Assembly: GCA_964016885.1 (NCBI GenBank)
Contig: OZ024743.1
Span: 294,562,001-294,626,000, forward strand
Reading direction: 5' to 3'
Source: Eledone cirrhosa
Lineage: Eukaryota
DNA length: 64,000 nt
Within the stretch, counting starts at the first letter, position 1, and each line of letters begins with the position of its first letter. The notes beneath the pieces were generated by a model. The model saw nothing but the letters and a program-made list of their open reading frames with translations. It had not been told where the DNA came from and made no database searches. Shown here in pieces: positions 4,708-60,200 of the stretch. A program made the position numbers and the translations under genes.

Positions 4708-4740
<33 letters not shown>

Positions 4741-4770
4741 TATATACATATATATATATATATACATATA

Positions 4771-4867
<97 letters not shown>

Positions 4868-5039
4868 ACTAACATAAGCGCACAGATGCACGCCCATGCT
4901 AGCAAATACACAGGTTATGTCATAGTACCTAGGTGGTTCAATGCAGGAGAATGCAGAACAATAATATAAAAGACGTAAAATAAGAAAATATTTTTCAAAA
5001 AAATTTTAAAAAATTTTTTACTTACTTACTTAAATTTTC

Positions 5040-5121
5040 ACTCCAACTAATTAGTTTCTGCAATGGGATAAAGACAGTTACGTAATCCAACTGTCGAGAA
5101 TTCATTGCGTCATCAGGGAGT
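5040..5121 (-). ncRNA. Type I hammerhead ribozyme (558-bp family)
   Basis: Reverse complement of the motif at 5821-5902. Confidence 0.85.
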
Positions 5122-5820
5122 CTATTCTCAGTTAAGTCTCCAGGCAATGCGCGGACACTGGCGGCTCATATAAAAATAATAATAATTCGGTAGATCGAAC
5201 AGCTGGCGAGGACTGGATTCTATGTACCGAAATTCTCACTGCTTCAGGTCAATGAAGGAGAATGCAGAACAATAATATAAAAGACGTAAAATAAGAAAAT
5301 ATTTTTCACAGGGAGTGAAAATTTAAGTAAGTAAATAAAACATTTTTTAAAAATTTTTTTGAAAAATATTTTCTTATTTTACGTCTTTTATATTTTTGTT
5401 CTGCATTCTCCTGCATTGAACCACCTAGGTACTATGACATAACCTGTGTATTTGCTAGCATGGGCGTGAATCTGTGCGCTTATGTTAGTTGATATTATCT
5501 ATAGTTAGTTGATATTATCTATATGAAATTATCTATATTTATCTCCAAATCACTGATTTGTCGAGCAAACTTGCCAAAACCACTTCTAAAAAAATTTTTT
5601 GGGGGTGTTAGTAGGCGTCAGTCATCTTACCATCCCATTCCTTCTAACTAGCCTCTGTGTCACGTGATTGATTCTTTAGAATCGGCCATTTGACCTGAAG
5701 CAGTGAGAATTTCGGTACATAGAATCCAGTCCTCGCCAGCTGTTCGATCTACCGAATTATTATTATTTTTATATGAGCCGCCAGTGTCCGCGCATTGCCT
5801 GGAGACTTAACTGAGAATAG

Positions 5821-5902
5821 ACTCCCTGATGACGCAATGAATTCTCGACAGTTGGATTACGTAACTGTCTTTATCCCATTGCAGAAACTAATTAGTTGGA
5901 GT
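5821..5902 (+). ncRNA. Type I hammerhead ribozyme (558-bp family)
   Basis: ACTCC-CTGATGA-C-GCAATG..GACAGTT..AACTGTC..CATTGC-A-GAAA-CTAATTAG-TT^GGAGT, with a GUU triplet. Confidence 0.88.
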
Positions 5903-6378
5903 GAAAATTTAAGTAAGTAAGTAAACAAATTTTTTAAAATTTTTTGAAAAATATTTTCTTATTTTACGTCTTTTATATTATTGTTCTGCATTCTCCTGCA
6001 TTGAACCACCTAGGTACTATGACATAACCTGTGTATTTGCTAGCATGGGCGTGCATCTGTGCGCTTATGTTAGTTGATATATTAAATTATCTATATTTAT
6101 CTCCAAATCAGTGATTTGTCGAGCAAACTTGCCAAAACCACTTCTAAAAAAATTTTTTGGGGGTGTTAGTAGGCGTCAGTCATCTTACCATTCCATTCCT
6201 TCTAACTAGCCTCTGTGTCACGTGATTGATTCTTTAGAATCGGCCATTTGACCTGAAGCAGTGAGAATTGCGGTACATAGAATCCAGTCCTCGCCAGCTG
6301 TTCGATCTACCGAATTATTATTATTTTTATATGAGCCGTCAGTGTCCGCGCATTGCCTGGAGACTTAACTGAGAATAG

Positions 6379-6460
6379 ACTCCCTGATGACGCAATGGTT
6401 TCTCGGCAGTTGGATTACGTAACTGTCTTTATCCCATTGCAGAAACTAATTAGTTGGAGT
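6379..6460 (+). ncRNA. Type I hammerhead ribozyme (558-bp family)
   Basis: Second direct copy, with an intact core. Confidence 0.88.
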
Positions 6461-6527
6461 GAAAATTTAAGTAAGTAAGTAAAAAATTTTTTTTTAATTT
6501 TTTTGAAAAATATTTTCTTATTTTACG

Positions 6528-6596
<69 letters not shown>

Positions 6597-6641
6597 CATA
6601 TATATATATACATACATATATATATATACACACATTCTGAA

Positions 6642-8315
6642 GTGATTGGCTGGTTCAACAAATTGGATAATAAAAACAAACTAAAATTTATTCAATTCGA
6701 TATTGCCAGCTACTATTCCTCCATTTCGCCTTCACTTCTCAATAATGCTCTATCTTTCGCACTTAAATATTCTGACATCACCACAGATGAACTTCACATC
6801 ATCCTCACCGCACGTAAAACCATCCTAGAGTTCAACAACGAATATTGGACCAGAGCCGATACCTCTAACAACTTCGACATCACAATGGGAGCATCCGATT
6901 CATCCCAATTGACTGATTTAATTGGTATCTTCATTTTGAACTCTTTGAGTCGGAAAATTCCTCAACTTCGCGGTGGAATTTATCGTGACGATGGACTCTT
7001 TACTATCCTAAATTGCAATATAGTTAAACTTAATATTATTAAGAACAATATACGTAATCTCTTTAACCAACATAACCTAAAAATTGAATTTGATAATAGT
7101 ATCAAACTAGTTAATTTCTTGGATGTATCTCTTAATCTTGACACTGGCCTATATTACCCTTACCATAAAAACAATGAGATTCTTAATTATGTTAACTTTA
7201 AATCTAACCATCCTACCAATATCAAGAATGCTATAGTTAATAATATTGGAAATAGAATATCTAACATATCTTCTAATAAAAACATCTTTGATGCTAACGC
7301 CAATTACTATAATAACGCACTTTCTAAAGCCGGCTATCCAGATGAAATCAAATATAATAAAGAAACAAATTCTAGGAAAACTTACAGTAGAATAATTAAT
7401 CATGACCATTCCAATAATTTTAATAAAAGACCTAGATACAAAAACATAATCTGGTATAATGCTCCTTTCTCCATCTCTATTAATAACAATATTCCTAAAT
7501 TATTTTTTAGTGCCTTAAATAAATGCTTCCCTCCCTCACATATCTATAGTAAAATATTTAACAAACACACCATCAAATTTTCGTATTCTACATCCTCCAA
7601 TATTTCCAACATCATCTCTAAACACAACAACAAAATATTAAATACTAAATCTCTTCCTTCCAATATTGAATTTCATAATAACAGTAATAGTACTCCCGAC
7701 GTCATTGTAAACCCTAGGCTAACTTCTGTAAACCCAAATACAACGTCAAACACAACTTCGCTAAATGTTCATAATCCAACTCTAAATCAAGAAACTATTA
7801 TTCCTATTATTCCTATCGCAAACAACTTCTCCAATCCAATTCCTTCTATAGATAACACTAGATCACTCATTAATAATCTCTCTAATTGCAACTGCCGCAT
7901 TAAAAATAAATGTCCTCTCAACAACCATTGCCTCGATAAAAACTTAATTTATGAATGTAAAATTATAACTAGCACCAATTCCTTCACCTATTTTGGCTCC
8001 ACTTCCACCTCTTTTAAAGCTCGTCTCTATAATCATCATTCATCTTTCAAATACAAACTTAAAAGAACTAACACTGCTCTCTCAGAACTCATATGGTCCT
8101 TAAAAGACAAAAACATGAAATATAACATCTTTTGGAAAAAGATTTCTTCTGCATCCTCATACTTGAACAGCTCTCTATCTAAAATCTGTAATCTCTGCCT
8201 AAATGAAAAATTTACCATTATCTCTAACCTAGATTCTATAATAAATAGACGCTCAGATTTGTTTTCTATCTGCCTGCATAAATTCCATAGAACTTTTCAC
8301 AAAGTATACAGTTAA
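6642..8315 (+). CDS. PLE RT + C-terminal GIY-YIG, YRDDG type (Hydra/Nematis-like); 5'-truncated but uninterrupted for 557 codons
   Basis: FIQFDIASYYSSI, FDITMGASDSSQLTDLIG, GGIYRDDG, VNFLDVSLNL, IIWYNAPFS, CNCRIKNKCPLNNHCL, LIYECKI...YFGSTSTSFKARLYNH, CNLCLNEK. Confidence 0.92.
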   Translation: MIGWFNKLDNKNKLKFIQFDIASYYSSISPSLLNNALSFALKYSDITTDELHIILTARKTILEFNNEYWTRADTSNNFDITMGASDSSQLTDLIGIFILNSLSRKIPQLRGGIYRDDGLFTILNCNIVKLNIIKNNIRNLFNQHNLKIEFDNSIKLVNFLDVSLNLDTGLYYPYHKNNEILNYVNFKSNHPTNIKNAIVNNIGNRISNISSNKNIFDANANYYNNALSKAGYPDEIKYNKETNSRKTYSRIINHDHSNNFNKRPRYKNIIWYNAPFSISINNNIPKLFFSALNKCFPPSHIYSKIFNKHTIKFSYSTSSNISNIISKHNNKILNTKSLPSNIEFHNNSNSTPDVIVNPRLTSVNPNTTSNTTSLNVHNPTLNQETIIPIIPIANNFSNPIPSIDNTRSLINNLSNCNCRIKNKCPLNNHCLDKNLIYECKIITSTNSFTYFGSTSTSFKARLYNHHSSFKYKLKRTNTALSELIWSLKDKNMKYNIFWKKISSASSYLNSSLSKICNLCLNEKFTIISNLDSIINRRSDLFSICLHKFHRTFHKVYS

Positions 8316-9400
8316 TATTCAATTCTTTATCAATTTAGAATCTTTTCTCAAAGGCACATATACATACACCTCTTTAAAATATACCCATCTACCTTACTTT
8401 AAAGGGCATTATACACTCTATAATACTCGTTTACTCATTACCCTCATTCTATCTTCTCGTAAAATAATAACATTTGTTTTTGACATTTTGAATATTCATC
8501 CGCAACCATTATTATTTTGTCTCTCTATCATAAATCTTTTTAATCTCAATTTCATCCTTAATTTATTATTATTTTTTTTTCTCCCCATCAACGAACTCAT
8601 TATTAATACATATCAATTCAATATACAAACTTTAACTTTACATTATTTTTCTCAAATCCTTCTACACACAAACCTTAACAATTTTTCTCTTCGCTAATTT
8701 TGAAATTGCCACAATACATACATTTCTTCTTTTGACGTTAGAATATTCACCCACAATTATTATTTTTTTCTCTCTATCTTCATACATAATTTCCCTTCGT
8801 TAATTTTCAAATTCCTTTAATTTATACATTATCTTCCAACGGTTCCCAACCTCTCTATATTAAAACAATATATCTTTTTCTCAGTTATAAAAACTATCTC
8901 TTTCTCTCTACCACCCATCTCTCCCTCTCCACCTTCACTCTCATCTCCTCCCCCCTTTTTTTCATCCTTTCCACCACCCCCTCCCTAAATAAAATATTTT
9001 TTCCTCGCACATATCCTCCCTTCGTTAATTTTCAAAATTTTTAATTTATACAGTATCTTCCAACGGTTTTCAACCCCTCTATGTAAAAAATATATCTCCT
9101 CTCAGTTATAAAAACTATCTCTTTCTCTCTATCACTCATCTCTCCCTCTCATCTCCTTCCCTTTTCATCCTCCCCCCCCCCTCTCTAAATAAAATATTTT
9201 TCCCAATATCACACATCAATCTAAAACCACTTTTCATATGTTAATTTAAAACTGCACTATCAACAAGTGTTTTTTAGCCTTCATATCATGTTCTCCTGTT
9301 TTATCTGATGAAAACACAAATATTATTGCTTGATGATGTTTGTTTTTGAAATGCGCATAATAAAATATATGGAACTCCTTTAACCATCTTTTGATCTTAT
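8316..9400 (+). mobile_element. 3' UTR/pLTR of the 6642-8315 PLE (family B)
   Basis: Homologous to 34765-35306 and 59938-60100. Contains an internal ~230-bp duplication (8790-9000 vs 9020-9200) and a hammerhead. Confidence 0.85.
9299..9365 (+). ncRNA. Type I hammerhead ribozyme (family B)
   Basis: TTTTAT-CTGATGA-AAACACAAAT..GTTTGTTTTT-GAAA-TGCGCA-TA^ATAAAA, with an AUA triplet. Confidence 0.85.
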
Positions 9401-9477
9401 ATTATACATACATATATATATATATATATATACATACATACATACACATATATATATACATAAATATATATATAAAA

Positions 9478-12400
9478 AATCAAGTTAAATAAAAAGTCAA
9501 ATGTTTAACATTTACCTTATTACTGCTATATATATTTCAGTGTCAGCCATCTTTGGCTGTGACCTCTTCAGGCAGTCCGAATTAGTGTGGTATAGACAAG
9601 TACATATGTTGTTGAGGTGTATAATTTTGTCAATACTCTGATATGCCCAGTTCCTGGTTGGCTTGTTATTTCACTGAAGAACTAGAATCATATGAATTCA
9701 AACAAACGAATTTCAGTGTCAAAGGGCCTCTTCTCCTCTCATTGGTCAGTTGTTAGAACATTCCTCATTCTAAGTGTTGTTATTGTTGGAGTTAGCTTAA
9801 AACATTGATAAAGTGGTAGAAGGGACAAGGTGTTAAAGGAACAAAATAACAAAAGTGTCAAACTTCCCATTGGTCAGTTCTGAGAGCATTCCTCAGTCAG
9901 AAGTCTATAGAATTCTTTCTAGGATGAGGCTCCCTGTAGTGTTTGTGTTTGCTATTGTTAAGTACATTTGACCTCCACCATTATTTTGGTGTTGTGGTCA
10001 GCTTATGTCTTGCTGCTGCTGACAATTTAGAAGTATCTGTGTGTGTTTTTTCTTCATCCCTCCTGCCACCATCTCTCATGGTTGTGGTGGTGGTGGTGGT
10101 GGTGCTGGTGTGTGTGTGTGTGGGGGGGGGGTTCTTCCATGTATATGAAGAAATATAAGGCAATAAATGAAGAAAACAGAAAATAAATAATATAATTTGT
10201 ATAATTTGAAAATAAATAATAAATAGAGAATAAAGAATAAAGAATAAATGAAAAATTGGTGAAAAAGTAATGAAAATGAAGATTCAAATAAAGTAGGATA
10301 AAGTGTGTGTGTGCTATAACCAATCTCAAGGTCAGAAATATGTTGGATAGATTGGTATGAGGACAAGATGTTAAAATAAGATAATCAAACAAAATGTGTT
10401 AGTGTTATAATCAATCTCAACTTAAAAATAAATATAAGGTGATACAGTAAAGAGGGCAGAAAACAAATAACAAATTAATAAAGAGAAATCAAGATTTAAA
10501 ATTGGGACTTGAAAATCAGAAATCAAGTAAATTAAAATGTGTTTGTGTCATATAGATGTTGGCCAAAATATAATAGCTGTGTCCGATTCAATCTGTAGGC
10601 TATCATGGTGTCTGCTCAGCCTGGGTTGTTCCTTATGGCTTGAGGGGAGTTCACAACCTAGGGTGTTGTTACTGACCATATAGCTTGAGGGAGGTCTGGC
10701 TGAGAGGTGTTTACATGTTCTGTAGAAGTCCCTATAGCTTGTGGGGAGTTCACATCTTCTTGTGTTGCTACTGTCCATATATCTTGAGGAAGGTCCCAGC
10801 TCCAAGGTGTCTGCATGTCCCGAAGAAGTCGGTCGGTTCTAAGGTTTATCAGGCCGCTTCCGCCTCTCAGTATCTCGAGGGTCTCGTTCAGGCATAGTTT
10901 GCATATGCAAGATCCCCCTTTATCGGGTCGTACATTCCTGATTATGTACCAGGCCAGAGAGTACGGTGTCCTGTCCAGCTTAAGCTTCCAGATCAAGTCG
11001 GAGAGAGCTGTGCTTTTCCTTTTGGCCTCCTTATTGAATTAATGGCGATGGTTGTACCAGCGGTCTTTAAAGCTCGTTGATGTGGCTCCTATGTAGAAGT
11101 GTTCGGAGTTGGGAGTTTTAACCCTACAACCGTATACTAGATTCTTCTTGAGGCATTCATTACTAAGGGGGTATGATTCGGTGTTTCTGCAGTTGCAGGG
11201 GGTGGTCGACCTCTGCATGCCTAGATTAGGGTTCCCGTTATGTGTTACATGTTGGTCTTAACCCAGACACGTTGGGGGGTCCCCGGGTCTGTTTGGGTTT
11301 CTTGGGTGGGCTCTGGGTCCCCCCTTCCCTCCTTTCACATGGTTCAGCTGAGTGCTTGTATTGCCATCTTCTGGTTGTGTGTGGTTTTTAAGCCTACTCC
11401 TGTTGATGCTAGCTATGTGTCGGGCCAGATTTCTCGTGGTGGAATACGAGATCTTCACAGTGTGTCTGTTGAAGATACTGTGGTATCTGTGGTCCCCCGG
11501 GAAGCATTTATCAAGTGCTCCAAAGAATGATCGGGCCAAGCTGTTCTTTAGGGCCGCTGAGTAAGGTGGGTTGTACCACGTGACTTTTCGGTGTCTCCTC
11601 CTATATGTGAGGGTCGGGAACATCGTGATTTTTTGGAAATTTGCTGGGTTGCTGGTGGTTCCCGCACTGTTGCTTCCCCTTTGGGCGCTATGCTTTTTGT
11701 TATATTCACGGCCGGAATCTGTGGGGTAGTCGTTGCCCGCGCTGGGAGATATATCGTGAGGTGGTCACCCATTCCCCCCCCCCCCACGTGTCCTGCGGTT
11801 GGGGTCGTCGGACCTGGGGTGGTTAGCGTCACCCCTGAGACTGTTACTCATATTGTGTTTCATCTCGTGGTTAAGCGTACTAGTCACCATCGCCCGTGTG
11901 GTGGTGTCGGGCACATGGTGCCTATTTGTTTCTGCTCTGCCTGTATTGTTAGGGTTCGCCCTCCCCTCCCCAGGCAACGCGGGTGTGGGTGTCTGTTCGG
12001 CTATCCCCATCCCGGCGTTTCGGACTATATGTTATATTTTGGCCATGTGCCGCCTTCTTTAGAGCTGTGTTATTGAATATTTCCTTCCTTGCGGACAGGT
12101 TGGAGATCCTGTCCGAGACACTCTTCACCACTGCCTTGGTTATGGATCTAGTGTGGTTTGATTTGGCGTTAACATATACGAGTTTCTCGTTGGGATTGTG
12201 GTGGGGGTAGTATTGTTCGGTGTTCAGGTTTAGGGTGGTGTCTAGGAAGTTAACTACCTTCCTATTTGGGTCTATTTCTATACTGAGCCCCTGGTTCTTA
12301 AAGAAATGGCGAATACCTCTCCTCATTCCCTTTAACATATTGGTGCTGTGGTCATATACTGTGAATAGAGCATCGTCACGGTATAATCCGGCGCCCAGGC

Positions 12401-12830
12401 AGGGGATTTCATCTTTTATCTGCTTCAGCAGGTAGAGCCCAACCAAGTCCGTTCCCTGTGCTGAGTCGCTGGAGCCCATCGTGATGTCAAAGTTATTTGG
12501 CCAATCACTCCTGGTCCAAAGGTCTCCATCGAAACGGATTAAGGTCTTTCTTGCGGCGGGGATGATGCTCACCTACTCTCGGGTTAGGTCCGTATTGGAC
12601 ATCGCTAAAAATAGGACCTTATTAAGTACTATGGGTGAGATTGAGGAGTAGTAGCTTGCGATGTGCAGTTGTATAAAGCTGGTCCTAATTTTCTCATGCA
12701 GTATTTTAAACCATTCTATTACTTCTCCCGTGCATGACCATTGCTGTAATTTAGTCTTCTTCCGAAGCTTGGGCAAAATCCTATCCAGTATTCTTTTACT
12801 GACGAACCCTAGGTCAGATCTAGAGGGGGC
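9478..12830 (-). mobile_element. PLE, YRDDA type; left arm of the giant inverted repeat; degraded ORF ~12827-10768
   Basis: QQWSCTGEVIEWF, FDITMGSSDSAQGTDLVG, AGLYRDDA, VTWYNPPYS, CNCRN..YPLSNECLKKNLVYGC..FYIGATSTSFKDRWYNH, CICKLCLNE. Confidence 0.92.
9522..9576 (-). ncRNA. Type I hammerhead ribozyme in the pLTR of the left arm
   Basis: Minus strand: ACTGC-CTGAAGA-..CAGCC-AAAGAT-GGCTG..-GAAA-TATATA-TA^GCAGT. The right-arm copy (15810-15864) has GAAA changed to GTAA. Confidence 0.78.
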
Positions 12831-15800
12831 GCCAAATAACTTTGACATCACGTTGGGCTCCAGCGACTCAGCACATGGAACGGACCTGGTTGGGTTCTAC
12901 CTGCTGAAGCAGATAAAATATTTATCCCCTGCCTGGGCGCCGAATTATACCGTGACGATGCTCTATTCACAGTATATGACCACAGCACCAATATGTTGGA
13001 GGGAATGAGGAAACGTATTCGCCATTTCTTTAAGAACCAGGGGCTCAGTATAGAAATAGACCCAAATAGGAAGGTAGTTAACTTCCTAGACACCACCCTA
13101 AACCTGAACACCGAACAATACTACCCCTACCACAAGCCCAACGAGAAACTCGTATATGTTAACGCCAAATCAAACCACACTAGATCCATAACCAAGGCAG
13201 TGGTGAAGAGTGTCTCGGACAGGATCTCCAGCCTGTCCGCAAGTAATGAAATATTCAATAACCACGCGGAATATTACAACACAGCTCTAAAGAAGGCGGC
13301 ACATGGCCAAAATATAACATATAGTCCGAAACGCCGGGATGGGGATAACCCAACAGACACCCACACCCGCGTTGCCGGGGGGAGGGCGAACCCTAACAAT
13401 ACAGGCAGAGCAGAAACAATTAGGCCCCATGTGATCGACACCACCACACGGGCGATGGTGACTAGTACGCTTAACCATGAGATGAAACACAATATGAGTA
13501 ACAGTCTCAGGGGTGACGGTAACCACCCCAAGACCGACGACCCCAACCGCAGGACACGTCCGGGGGGGGGACAGGGGGCCACCCCACGATAGATATCCCA
13601 GCGCGGGCAACGACCACCCCACAGATTCCGGCCGTGAATATAACAAAAAACATAGCGCCCAAAGTGGAAACAACAGTGCGGAAACCACCAGCAACCCAAC
13701 AAATCTCCAACAAATCACGACGCCCCGGACCGACACAGATAGGAGGAGACATAGAAAAATAACGTGGTACAACCCACTCTACTCAGCGGCCCTAAAGAAC
13801 AGCTTGGCCCGATCATTCTTTGGAGCACTTGATAAATGCTACCCGAGGGAGCACAGATACCACAGGATCTTCAACAGACACACTGTGAAGTTCTCGTATT
13901 CCACCACGAGAAATATGGCCCAACACATAGCTAGCATCAACAGGAGTAGGCTTAAAAACCACACACAACCAGAAGATGGCAATACAAGCACTCAGCAGAA
14001 CCATATGAAAGGAGGGAAGGGGGGACCCAGAGCCCACCCAAGAAACCCAAACATACCCGGGGGACCCCCCCCCCCACCGTGCCTGGGGTAATACCTACAT
14101 GTAACACATAGCGGGAACCCTAATCTATGCACGCAGAGGTCGACCTCGCTCTGCAACTGCAGAGACCCCGAATCATGCCCCCTTGGTAATGAATGCCTCA
14201 AGAAGAACCTAGTATACGGTTGTAGGGTTAAAACCCCCAACTCTGAACACCTCTACATAGGAGCCACATCAATGAGCTTAAAAGACCACTGGTACAACCA
14301 TCGCCATTCATTCAATAAGGAGGCCAAAAGGAAATGCACGGCTCTCTCCAACCTGATCTGGAAGCTTAAGCTGGACAGGACACCGTTCTCTCTGGCCTGT
14401 ACATAATCAGGTAAGTACGACCCGATAAAGGGGTATCTTGCATTTGCAAACTATGCCTGAACGAGACCCTCGAGATACTAAGAGGTGGAAGCGGCCTGAT
14501 AAACCTCAGTACCGACTTCTTCGGGACATGCAGAAACCTTAGAGCTGGGACCTTCCTCAAGATATATGGACAGTTGCAACACAAGATGATGTGAACTCCC
14601 CTCAAGCTATATGGACTTCTACAGAACATGTAAACACCTCTCAGCCAGACCTCCCTCAAGCTATATGGTCAGTAACAACACCCTAGGTTGTGAACGCCCT
14701 TCAAGCCATAAGGAGCAACCCAGGCTGAGCAGACACCATGATAGACTACAGATTGAATCGGACACAGCCATAATATTTTGGCCAACATCTATATAATACA
14801 AACACATTTTAATTTACTTGATTTCTGATTTTCAAGTCCCAATTTTAAATCTTGATTTCTCTTTATTAATTTGTTATTTGTTTTCTGCCCTCTTCACTGT
14901 ATCACCTTATATTTATTTTTAAGTTGAGATTGATTATAACACAAACACATTTTGTTTGATTATCTTATTTTAACATCTTGTCCTCATACCAGTCTATCCA
15001 ACATATTTCTGACCTTGAGGTTGGTTATAGCACACACACACACTTTATCCTACTTTATTTGAATCTTCATTTTATTTTTCACTTCTCCAAATTCATTTTC
15101 ATTACTTTTTCACAAATTTTTCATTTATTCTTTATTCTTTATTTTCTATTTATTATTTATTTTCAAATTATACAAATTATATTATTTATTTTCTGTTTTC
15201 TTCATTTATTGCCTTATATTTCTTCATATATATGGAAGAACCCCCCCACCACCACCACACATACACACAAACCACCCCCACCCCCACAACCATGAGAGAT
15301 GGTGGCAGGAGGGATGAAGAAAAAACACACACAGATACTTCTAAATTGTCAGCAGCAGCAAGACATAAGCTGACCACAACACCAACAACACTACCAAAAT
15401 AATGGTAGAGGTCAAATGTACTTAACAATAGCAAACACATACACTACAGGGAGCCTCACCCCAGAAAGAATTCTATAGACGTCTGACTGAGGAATGCTCT
15501 CAGAACTGACCAATGGGAAGTTTGACACTTTTTGGGTTATTTTGTTCCTTTAACTCCTTGTCCCTTCTACCACTTTATCAATTGTTTAAGTTAACGCCAA
15601 CAATAACAACACTTAGAATGAGGAATGTTCTAACAACTGACCAATGAGAGGAGAAGAGGCCCGTTGACACTGGAATTCGTTTGTTTGAATTCATATGATT
15701 CCAGTTCCTCAGTGAAATAATAACCCAACCAGGAACTGGGCATATCAGAGTATTGACAAAATTATACACCTCAACAACATATGTACTTGTCTATACCACA

Positions 15801-16038: not shown

Positions 16039-19000
16039 AGTAATAATAATAAATTTGAAGACTAAAATCCAAAGAAGTCTCGATAAGGATAAATATATAT
16101 CAAATATATAAGAACCCTAGAGCAAATATTTATTAAAATAACAGTTTAAAGTTTAACCAAAGAATCGTTGCTTTCACCCTTAACGAGATATTCTGAAACT
16201 ACAAAAAACAATCTGTGAACGCAGAAGGAAATATTTCGAAAAACATTTCAACCGAAGGAAAACAGGAACATGATACTTTCGTTTGTGAAAACATCCCTGA
16301 AGGGAAAAAAGCGAAGATAATACGTTGTTATGTGGAGCGAGAAAGAGAATAATTACACGCAAAGACAAAACCACAGTCGTAGACTAATATTCAATTTAGG
16401 AAACCGAATGATTCTCGGCTTCAGAGTTAAGAATAATGTAAATAAATTAGTAGAACGAAAATGACAGAGGTTATTAAAATAAACAATAATTAAATATATA
16501 CTTACACGCATCCACACGTACATACACATGCATACGCAAAAAACACCCGCCATGCATGCATATACAAGCATGTACACATAAACATGCGCACACATACATA
16601 AACCCACTCGACACCTGTGCCCGCACACATACGACCGTATACACCAAATAAACATGAAAAAAAGAATACATATATATATGTGTGTGTGTCTGTATATACA
16701 TATAATTATATAAACGTATATAACTATACACACATAAATACGTATATAACGCACGCACACACACACATGCCTACGTGTAAATACACATATGTTCACTAAA
16801 CGTACGTCAACCAAAACACAAAGTACAAATATACACACCTTACATTCGCTCAAACACGCATACACACACAAACACAAAATACACATATACACATAACCAT
16901 ATACACCAACGCAACCTTTTAAGGAACGAGTCCATGTTTTCTGTATCGGGACTCTATTTGGATTAAACAATCTAATAGTACCCCATTCGACGTGAGTATG
17001 GGGGTCAGTGATTCGGCGGAGGTTACTGATCTTACCGGCCTTTTCCTTCTTTTCTGTATCAAGGAAGAATTCCCCAATGTGGGCGGTGGTTTGTACCGTG
17101 ATGACGGTCTTTTGGCCATGACAAAGTGCGGTCCACGCGCTTGCAACATGTTCAGAAAAGAACTCACAGCCTTCTTTAAAGGTTTCAACCCCTGCATACA
17201 GGTTGAGGCCAACCTCTCGGTCATTAATTACCTCGACGTTACCCTCAATTTGTCGAATGGCCTGTACAACCCGTTTAGAAAGCCGAATGATACGTTTAAT
17301 TAGATAAGTAAGCATTCTAACCATCCTGCCAGCATAACCAAGAACCTGGTAAGAAACATTTCTTTGAGGTTTTCCCGTCTATCTACAAACCAGCATATTT
17401 TCACCGACCATTCCACATATTACAATGAAGCTCTGGCTCGGAGTGGATTTGTCGGTAAGGTAGCATGTACAGAGTACAAGAATAGACCTAGAAGAAATAG
17501 ATCCCGGCGCATTATATGGTATAACCCACCATATAATATGGAGGTGGCCACACCATTGGCTAAGATCTTTCTTTCCCTTATTAAGAAGCATTTCCTCTCA
17601 GCACATAAATATAATAACATTTTTAATAGAAATACCATTAAAATATATTACTCTACGACTCCTAACCTTGCACTGAACATGACTGCTTCAAATTTAGCTA
17701 AATTACCTAGCCGTAGGAATACGTGCAATCCTGTAGCTAGTATTGTAGGAATCGGGTTGACTGCCCTCTATTCGGGAAATGCCTCTCCAGTAACATTGTC
17801 TACAAATGTAAGATCGAAACACCCACGTCCAGTAGGGCCTACATATGGTTAACCGCACACCTATTCTTTACTTAACCCTTTAAGAAGGAGCATGACGTCA
17901 CTTTCAGCTTATATCTGGGGTCTAAAAGACAACAACACCCAATATAGGTTACATTGGCAGATGCTAGCTAAAGCTAGATCGTATAACGGAAATAAAAGTC
18001 CATGCGATCTCTGCGTAACTGAAGCCTTGGAAATACTCTACGCCAATGACCACATCTTAAACAAAAAATCTGAGGCAATTTCGGCTTGTAAACATAAATT
18101 GTATAAAACTTTCCTGTATTACAGCCCCACATTATACCCTAATGGACAGTACGAAAATACGCGGATAATTTACGTCTTGATGTGGTAGCTAAATTTATTT
18201 TCTTTATACCATTACTTATTTGTATAGGTAAGTATACCTTACCCGTATGTTTTGTGAAGGTACGTATACTTTCTCGTAGAGTATATTTGCTTGCATTTGT
18301 TATAGGTGTATATATGATATATATACTGGTACATGTGTATATGGTTATGCGTATATGTGTATTTGGTGTTTGTGTGTTTATGCGTGTTTGCACGTATGTA
18401 AGGTGTGTATATGTGAACTTTGTGTTTTGGTTGACGTAGTTTAGTGAACATATGTATATTTACCCGTAGTATGTGTGTGCGTGCGTTATATATGTATTTA
18501 TGTGTGTATAGCTATATACGTTTATATAATTATATGTATATATATATACACACACATATATATATCTTTTTCATGTGTATTTCGTGTATACGGTTGTATA
18601 TGTGCGGGTATTGGTGTCACGCGGGTTTATGTGTACGTGCTTGTATATGCAAGCATGGCGGGTGTTTTCGCGTATGCATGTGTATGTACGTATATGGATG
18701 CGTGTATGTGTATATTTAATTATTGTTGATTTTAATAACCTCTGTCATTTTCGTTCTACTAATTTATTTACATTATTCTTAACTCTGAAGCCGAGAATCA
18801 TTCGGTTTCCTAAATCGAATATTAGTCTACGACTTCATTTATACCATAAACGTGGTTTTGTTTTTGTGTGTAATTCTCAACGCTCCACATAACGACGTAT
18901 TATCTTCGCTTTTTTTCCTTCATTACCAGAGAACGTCTTCACAAACGAAAGTATCATGTTCCTGTTTTCCCTCGGTTGCAACGTTTTTCGAAATATTTAC

Positions 19001-33912: not shown

Positions 33913-33964
<52 letters not shown>

Positions 33965-33967
<3 letters not shown>

Positions 33968-35303
33968 GGAGGTGAGTTTTATTGAAGTACAATAAAGCAA
34001 TGCAGATATCGGATAAGTAGCACTCTACAGTTTGTAGGACTGGAGTATAAATAATATATAATATCAAAAGATGGTTAAAAGAGTTCCATGTATTTTATTA
34101 TGCGCATTTCAAAAACAAATATCATCATGCGATGACATTTGCCTTTTCGTCAGATAAAATAGGGTGACATGATATGAAGGTTAAAAAACACTTGTGAATA
34201 GTGTAGTTTTAAATCAACATATGAAAAGTAGTTTTAGATTGATGTGTGATATCGGGAAACAAATTGAAGGTGGGGGGGATGGAAAGGATGGAAAAGAGGA
34301 GGAGATGAGAGTAAAGCATGGAGGGGGAGGTGTATAATAAGGAAGGATAAGATAGGAGGAGAGATGGGTGATAGAGAAAGAGAGATTGCTTTTATAACTG
34401 AGAAAAATATATTGTTTTACAGAGAGAGGTTAAAAAAACCGTTGGAAGATAATATATAAATTAAAAGAATTTGAAAATTAACGAAGAGGAAAATTTAAGA
34501 ATAATGTTAAATTAAGGTTTGTATATTGAAGGGTTTAATAATATGTGCGATGAAAAGAAATTGTTAATATGTATTAAGAATAATATTAAGTTAAGGTTTG
34601 AATATTGAAGGGTTTTCTCCGCTCATTTGTAAACAAAACATTTACATATATTAATTCATCCACTCTTCAACTTCTTTTCACAATATATCTTTAATTACAT
34701 TACTAATTTTATATTTTTTTAAATAATACATTTCAACAATTTCTTTCCATCGCACATATTATTAAACCCTTCAATATTCAAACCTTAACTTAATATTATT
34801 CTTAATACATATTAGCAATTTCTTTTCATCGCACATATTATTAAACCCTTCAATATACAAACCTTAATTTAACATTATTCTTAAATTTTTCTCTTCGTTA
34901 ATTTTCAAATTCTTTTAATTTATATATTATCTTCCAACGGTTTTTTTAACCTCTCTCTGTAAAACAATATATTTTTCTCAGTTATAAAAGCAATCTCTCT
35001 CTCTCTATCACCCATCTCTCCTCCTATCTCATCCTTCCTTATTATACTCCTCCCTCTCCATTCTTTACTCTCATCTCCTCCTCTTTTCCATCCTTTCCAC
35101 CCCCCACCCCTTCAATTTTTTTCCCAATATCACACATCAATCTAAAACTACTTTTCATATGTTGATTTAAAACTACACTATTCACAAGTGTTTTTTAACC
35201 TTCATATCATGTCTCCCTATTTTATCTGACGAAAACGCAAATGTCATCGCATGATGTTATTTTGTTTTTAAAATACATGGAACTCCTTTAATCATCTTTT
35301 GAT

Positions 35304-59680: not shown

Positions 59681-60110
59681 TGTAGGAGGTGAGTTTTATT
59701 GTAGTACAATAAAGCAATGCAGATATCGGATAAGAAGCACTCTACAGTTTGTAGGACTGGAGTATATATAATATATAAGAACAAAAGATGGTTAAAAGAG
59801 TTCCATGTATTTTATTATGCGCATTTCAAAAACAAATATCATCATGCAATAATATTTGTGTTTTCATCAGATAAAACAGGAAGACATGATATGAAGGTTA
59901 AAAAACACTTGTGGATAGTGCAGTTTTAAATCAACATATGTTGATTTAAAACTGCACTATCCACAAATGTTTTTTAACCTTCATATCATGTCTTCCTGTT
60001 TTATCTGATGAAAACACAAATATTATTGCATGATGATATTTGTTTTTGAAATGCGCATAATAAAATACATGGAACTCTTTTAACCATCTTTTGTTCTTAT
60101 ATATTATATA
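59681..60110. mobile_element. Family B 3' end as a near-perfect spacerless palindrome with two hammerheads (59810-59876 -, 59999-60065 +)
   Basis: Symmetry centre CAACAT|ATGTTG at 59937/59938, with arms of ~170 bp. Confidence 0.92.
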
Positions 60111-60200
60111 TATCATATATATACATATATATATTTAGTTATTTAAAAGATATATATATGTATATATATATATAGGATTAGTTACACAACAGTTAGTTCA

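Follow-up and report, generated by a model that had tools for sequence, protein, structure and literature searches.

In a 64,000-nucleotide stretch of the Eledone cirrhosa genome, referred to throughout as the window, a tandem repeat carrying a hammerhead ribozyme motif begins on the plus strand at position 5312, precisely at the point where the motif predicts that its RNA would be cut (GUU^GGAGU). The original prediction is borne out in this respect, and the locus therefore raises the question of whether the 5′ end of the array records self-cleavage of an RNA template, and by what route such a repeat entered the genome. A single locus cannot by itself show cleavage, and the answer has to come from the other copies of the repeat. 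Our analysis favours one head-to-head insertion of a non-coding hammerhead repeat into a (TA)n target, likely made by a Penelope-like endonuclease and reverse transcriptase (RT) acting in trans, a reading to which we assign a probability of roughly 70%.

Anatomy of the locus and its hammerhead motif

Unit positions are numbered here from the first G of GGAGT (+1; window 5898) in a unit of 558 nt, and an arm is an uninterrupted stretch of the repeat on one strand. The locus runs from (AT)n through a minus arm, the bases CAG and a plus arm to (TA)n, with both 3′ ends pointing outward. Its left target half, an (AT)n microsatellite identified by TRF (4708..4865), runs into the end of the minus arm, where unit 1-184 (4861..5044, minus strand) carries the long ('B') 3′ end in its rarer +184 variant. 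The minus arm then reads through the cleavage site between 5045 and 5044 into unit 351-558 (5045..5252), which is 97.6% identical to the second unit of the plus arm, has the majority alleles and, with the adjoining bases, forms a type I hammerhead copy (5040..5121). Position 351 is joined over a 4-nt overlap to unit 48-107 (5249..5308), either by an internal deletion or by a template jump. The CAG spacer at the head-to-head junction (5309..5311) is templated by neither arm; the original prediction called it unrelated to the array, which holds for those three bases and fails beyond them, since the inverted arm at 4861-5308 had been overlooked.

The plus arm comprises unit 1 (5312..5897, 586 bp), which begins at the predicted cleavage site and carries a 27-nt internal duplication near 5496-5522, unit 2 (5898..6455, 558 bp) and a partial unit 1-81 (6456..6537) with the short ('A') 3′ end, which fuses with the right target half, a (TA)n microsatellite (6533..6628, TRF). 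Two full units and a partial third had been proposed and are indeed present, whereas the proposed length of 558 bp applies to unit 2 only. The 13-mer GGAGTGAAAATTT occurs on the plus strand at 5312, 5898 and 6456 and on the minus strand at 5044; at 5312 it is preceded by CAG, and the internal copies are preceded by GTT. Type I hammerheads span 5821..5902, with the cut predicted after GUU between 5897 and 5898, and 6379..6460, with the cut predicted between 6455 and 6456. There is no reading frame of 120 aa or more within 4861-6537, and no LTR flanks the insertion, each end of which passes into (TA)n. Outside a variable A/T tract, all substitutions between units at the locus are rare alleles (1-4 of 164 units), indicating that its units represent one haplotype plus later changes.

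The motif combines the core CUGAUGA/GAAA/UH with stem I ACUCC/GGAGU, a palindromic stem III and a long stem II, in which 6 bp and an inner hairpin form a 51-nt arm. It folds with z = -2.95, and 0 of 200 shuffles fold equally well; Rfam at gathering score gave zero matches in the window. Of the cells in 14 hand-chosen sequences of the main family and its sisters, 94% are paired, as against 34-48% in slid controls, which are lenient because the structure was drawn from one of the 14 sequences; 8 of 21 pairs have changed on both sides. The covariation score was reached by 0 of 500 shuffles, although related sequences can beat this control. The real evidence for the predicted ribozyme is the set of compensatory changes in stem II, with four pair types at one position. 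Across the 14 sequences the core is invariant, and a conserved G-C pair near it has an invariant C before and an invariant A after it. At the predicted cut stands GUU, which is cleaved more slowly than GUC. GUU is counted among the cleavable triplets in the available text of PMC3138052. Penelope-type motifs, for which an extra base after position 9 has been described, share the long helix II, short helix I and palindromic helix III seen here and cleave weakly, as dimers (PMC4209133, in the portion available). The 558-nt unit RNA is structured (z -3.56), and stems I and III are absent from the minimum-energy fold of the circular monomer. Further type I hammerhead-like families with many loci are represented in the window at 9571 (minus), 45234 (plus) and 50754 (plus).

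These features identify the repeat as a retrozyme-type element, as the original prediction had proposed, here of the non-LTR type, new in itself and of a kind already known; the prediction's outline of the mechanism was also broadly right, and its proof from one locus was weak. Non-LTR retrozymes are circular RNAs for which Penelope-like elements have been proposed as mobilisers (PMC7229834) and which have been derived from pLTRs (bioRxiv 10.64898/2026.07.22.740005). As far as the available text of these two sources goes, the metazoan members share with our repeat non-coding tandem units with one type I hammerhead each, thousands of copies, low GC, structured RNA, a mixture of arrays and dispersed copies, the presence of Penelope-like elements in the genome, and, as proposed for them, a circular template. 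The 558-nt length lies above the 150-450 bp given in the former (PMC7229834) and within the 51-972 bp of the latter (bioRxiv 10.64898/2026.07.22.740005). The 51-nt stem II arm and the GUU set our repeat apart, and the circular RNA shown for non-LTR retrozymes would be a putative form of the 558-nt repeat.

5′ junctions at the predicted cleavage site

Exact matches to the 20-mer at the site number 3,560 in the genome, 3,537 after T and 23 after another base; the latter resolve into 18 true junctions (16 loci) and 5 substitutions at position 17, three of which produce GUC. The first 100 matches correspond to 52 loci and cover the initial 92 Mb of C1; assuming a uniform spread from this sample we estimate about 1,700 loci genome-wide. 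The copies range from monomers to long multimers, with single arms of up to 3,950 nt, and sister families of about 70-80% identity have identical ends. Across the genome the predicted site is the exact start of 18 arms, whereas 3,537 read through it, so that 99.4% of passes do not halt there. An array start generally set by cleavage, as first supposed, is not supported by these counts, nor by the higher rates found at +7, +8 and +10.

For comparison, junctions were read by eye in windows upstream of other anchors, using 100 of 115, 100 of 111, 100 of 111, 43 of 43 and 100 of 186 rows, scaled to totals. Far-base substitutions and internal indels were dropped (about 18, 44, 53, 12 and 5 rows), a few duplicates were counted once, and pass denominators, scaled from the 52-locus sample, are approximate. 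A script applied to the first 30 loci from four of these sets of rows agreed with the reading by eye, and the control counts are conservative because a few internal variants remain in them. On this basis, 16 like-for-like arms start at +1 where 3.5 are expected, a rate of 0.45%, which is about 4.6-fold above the 0.10% (range 0-0.31%) of 16 G/C-start controls (Poisson p 8e-7, in a test that ignores the spread among control positions). The excess of junctions at GGAGT that the original prediction anticipated is thus present, but the expected concentration there is not, as most 5′ ends lie elsewhere and junctions are spread over the whole unit. Per base, the stop rate is 0.47% at -2..+1 and 0.66% at +4..+11, as against 0.12% at 547-556, 0.18% at 108-121, 0.17% at 195-204 and 0.22% at 315-325. 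At +2 there are 8-9 junctions among 30 of 32 matches; +3 is ambiguous and was omitted from the rates. An apparent cluster of starts at 509-513 was rejected as an artefact of private changes in the query unit.

The peak at the site is small and broad, high downstream and low upstream. This shape fits run-off at an RNA 5′ end followed by trimming, and its portion at +7..+10 also fits pausing at stem I. A different account of the start at 5312 would make it unrelated to cleavage: RT would pause on entering the folded hammerhead, ends would be trimmed to AT-rich microhomology, and +1 would be the shoulder of the +7..+10 peak, or chance. Consistent with this, the top rates, which reach 1.2% or about 2.7 times the +1 rate, fall at +7, +8 and +10, just 3′ of stem I at the palindrome AAAATTT; in addition, three of the 45 control positions have rates at or above that of +1, all of them T-starts, with 0.5-0.8% at 121, 195 and 317, and every lap has an equal stop rate (see below). 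However, GGAGT has no microhomology to (TA)n, the dips at +4 (0.13%) and +2 separate two peaks, the rate at -3 is only 0.03%, and the AT-rich control at 196-204 shows only 0.10% per base. Furthermore, a template wrapped in cDNA would be unable to fold on later laps either. We therefore regard pausing and trimming as an unlikely explanation of the start at 5312. The excess of 16 arms over 3.5 puts about three in four +1 starts above background, and the start at 5312 is likely, at the same odds, to be a stop at or near the scissile bond. The genomic DNA suggests, as had been proposed, that the ribozyme may be active in vivo, with cutting likely to have set only a small share of ends.

The two arms of an insertion offer a further view of these stops. 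Where one of the two arms starts at -2..+1 (about 35 loci), the other starts at -2..+2 in 7 cases. Arm starts lie within 15 nt of each other at 6 of 34 head-to-head junctions (null 2.0, p 0.011), and this symmetry is enriched wherever in the unit the arms begin, which weakens the argument from both arms. Either a shared broken RNA end or fold-back would produce symmetric starts. At the loci concerned (L088, L108, L109, L125, L129 and L137) they are often found at local palindromes.

Two fixed 3′ ends and a probable shared template

The mechanism is better revealed by two features overlooked earlier, the inverted arm and the pair of fixed 3′ ends, than by the position of the array start. Arms end either at +81 (TTTTATAT) or at about +200 (ATCTATAT), sometimes at +184 (4 of 52 pairs), in each case grading into (TA)n. 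Both ends could be typed in 103 distinct insertions among 349 loci, and 102 of these pair a short with a long end (A+B); the one exception (B+B) is a long-long insertion at L376:884-2258. This count excludes loci with one arm, arms incomplete in the sampled sequence and untyped ends (in a subset of 221 loci, a single end was typed at 102, with 33 left unresolved), and most loci were selected by junction or good match, not by their ends. A conserved hairpin lies 5′ of each 3′ end, with compensatory change in 4 of 46 predicted pairs (7 sequences; the alifold used 7 rows, and 3 of 10 tails were left out as unrelated downstream).

These ends suggest a mechanism in which both strands of the (TA)n target would be nicked, one 3′-OH priming at +200 and the other at +81, in each case at a UAUAU just 3′ of the conserved hairpin. 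Both arms would then copy the RNA backwards, mostly straight past the ribozyme site, with RT going lap after lap, likely on a ligated monomer circle, and end-joining would fuse the two cDNA ends head-to-head. In about 0.5-1% of passes RT would stop at the scissile bond or within 2 bases of it, because of either the 5′ end of a cleaved template or a ligation scar. It is very improbable that the repeat is instead a satellite grown by DNA-level duplication and inversion, with an incidental hammerhead-like motif. Unit arrays do exist on C28 (88 kb) and C2 (59 kb), where six of six sampled 10-kb stretches are filled with the unit, but unequal crossing-over yields neither fixed 3′ ends with variable 5′ truncation and (TA)n targets, nor the A+B rule and covarying helices around an invariant core. 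The satellite reading is contradicted for the dispersed copies and may fit the growth of the long arrays. These arrays, at C28 8.815-8.903 Mb and C2 312.606-312.665 Mb (L284-L289; sampled extent, with edges beyond), are built from units of about 541 and 558 bp and show higher-order repeats, and some of their cores are damaged.

Within one insertion the units belong to a single haplotype, which is what a re-read template, of the sort first proposed, would lead one to expect. At 59 polymorphic sites, unit pairs differ by 0.14 sites within an arm (74 pairs) and 0.38 between opposite arms (16 pairs), as against 18.7 between loci, and 59 haplotypes occur among 101 loci. Opposite arms are identical at all 59 sites in 12 of 16 pairs, compared with 4.9% of 13,276 between-locus pairs; de-duplication of this set was imperfect, with at least one locus present twice and two from a long array. 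The best explanation of the shared haplotype would be a single monomer read repeatedly, and a homogeneous short multimer is a possible alternative source. Together with the near-strict pairing of ends, the shared haplotype is a stronger finding than the start site.

The laps themselves bear on the form of the template. Sixteen of 47 arms starting at -2..+1 (42 loci; most of those listed, not all) hold at least one full unit, which is similar to the 37 full units per 103 passes that represent later laps in the 52-locus sample, which puts the stop rate at about the same level on every lap. This argues against doubly cleaved linear monomers as the principal source. Since a cDNA-wrapped circle would be unable to re-cleave, stops on later laps need either a scar or a linear multimer. 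Templates might accordingly be linear, partly cleaved multimers from young homogeneous arrays, in which a low chance of cutting per ribozyme would give a constant stop rate per unit. They would explain, with no scar, the arms that start at +1 and contain one to three full units, that in the window included, and they suit a weak ribozyme (GUU, a C-A at the base of stem II and a 3-bp stem III); likewise, uncleaved RNA was the main in vitro substrate of an anole element in the available text of PMC11167929. On the other hand, daughters of linear multimers would inherit parental differences between units, whereas such differences are absent from 8 of 44 multi-unit loci, and of 190 inter-unit differences only 7 involve family-polymorphic alleles. 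Arrays could also only shrink, yet arms reach several kilobases, and the two sampled long arrays are unlike most dispersed units: their units differ from one another at about 9 sites and from dispersed units at a median of 25, the minimum distance of 0 being due to two C2-array loci that stayed in the dispersed set. We rejected these two arrays as templates on that ground, and consider linear multimers in general a less likely template than the circle.

Penelope-like elements as candidate mobilisers

The reading of a repeat mobilised in trans directs attention to Penelope-like elements, one of which, 5′-truncated and separately inserted, lies next to the locus (6630..9403, plus strand). It has an RT and GIY-YIG-type frame to 8315, on which Pfam gave zero matches, a CxCX5C linker as in the Hydra clade, and its own hammerhead motif at 9300-9364, with no sequence link to the 558-nt repeat. 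A partnership with this neighbour is unsupported, as hammerhead and tail differ and (TA)n lies in between. The window also contains another hammerhead-bearing Penelope-like family (59740-60120, 9300-9403 and 33950-34170), which includes a head-to-head pair with a tail on a single arm (59870 minus and 60005 plus), and broken Penelope-like RT/GIY-YIG pieces in both orientations (10832-14570 and 16944-18113). Short and long ends are paired in 4 of 4 and 2 of 2 head-to-head loci of two coding Penelope-like families, one of the latter two being in the window at 59827/60048.

At one of 221 loci (L131/L321; L321:5480-9332, C1, 89.30 Mb), a short-ended repeat arm (226-558-81) lies head-to-head with a 5′-truncated arm of a young coding element that bears its own long end, with no (TA)n between the arms. 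The coding element has DKT and CxCX5C, which are Hydra-clade marks in the available text of PMC8557442, and its family has at least 1,593 candidates, with 99% identity among 40 scored. In this family (L327-L346), two fixed 3′ ends lie about 113 nt apart and the long 3′ UTR contains an internal (TA)n tract. The locus is a candidate hybrid insertion and its element a candidate mobiliser, and one case can be chance. The family and the repeat have a common 11-mer and similar end contexts; their alignment score of 31, against a shuffled mean of 33.8, is not significant. No coding element with the repeat's own sequence was present among 320 loci or among 43 matches with a shorter stem II, of which the 30 examined are sister repeats or deletions. 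Tentatively, and with odds below even, we propose a more specific form of trans mobilisation, in which an asymmetric protein pair would prime the two strands, almost without exception, at RNA sites 120 nt apart, roll one circle in both arms and stumble on each lap at the rejoined bond, the mobiliser being a young Hydra-clade element that would also be able to fuse an arm of its own to one of a retrozyme.

In the L1 elements, twin priming joins two primed cDNAs 5′ to 5′ with their 3′ ends outward. The repeat resembles them in this arrangement, but its arms copy overlapping template, each may exceed one unit, the two starts are fixed and internal, and the 5′ end of an arm does not abut the other priming site; L1-type twin priming on one linear molecule was rejected because the arm coordinates are incompatible with it. 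In R2 elements with HDV-like ribozymes, an insertion can have its 5′ end set by the ribozyme cut, and it is the full-length end that is set in this way, whereas in the repeat the cut accounts for about 1% of passes.

Penelope-like elements offer closer parallels. Their available descriptions include inverted 5′-truncated copies, (TA)n targets and an often one-sided tail (PMC8557442), as well as a protein that uses two internal start sites and nicks both strands (PMC11167929). The repeat shares with them 5′ truncation, an inverted truncated 5′ copy, the (TA)n target of the Hydra clade, two start sites and a tail at one end (PMC8557442, PMC11167929). It differs in having no ORF and in a tail of about 120 nt, theirs being 30-40. 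Its end pairing is near strict (102 of 103), whereas in vitro the start site of the anole protein is strand-independent, and its ends have 3-6 nt of TATAT in common with the target, whereas the anole start site is non-homologous to the cut DNA (PMC11167929). The anole element inserted with no need for ribozyme cleavage and gave no reads ending at the site (PMC11167929), and in vitro only 1 of 9 Xenopus retrozyme dimers cleaved (bioRxiv 10.64898/2026.07.22.740005, in the text available). Head-to-head insertions and junction statistics, found here, are not described for non-LTR retrozymes in the available text of PMC7229834 and bioRxiv 10.64898/2026.07.22.740005.

In the literature covered, largely open-access main text, we found no tally of 5′ junctions at the cut site of a retrozyme and none of 3′-end pairing; the junction statistics are the new part, and the class of element was already known. 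The role of the hammerhead in Penelope-type elements has been called unclear (PMC8557442), and the young insertions of this one short element, about 1,700 in number, provide counts that bear on this role. The mark of cleavage on their 5′ ends is small yet measurable, and the insertions have one start site per strand and one haplotype in both arms. With its start sites mapped, the 558-nt RNA lends itself to tests of the circular template and of strand asymmetry. If the more specific form of trans mobilisation proposed above, with odds below even, is true, the Eledone cirrhosa genome would be an in vivo record of Penelope-type integration.
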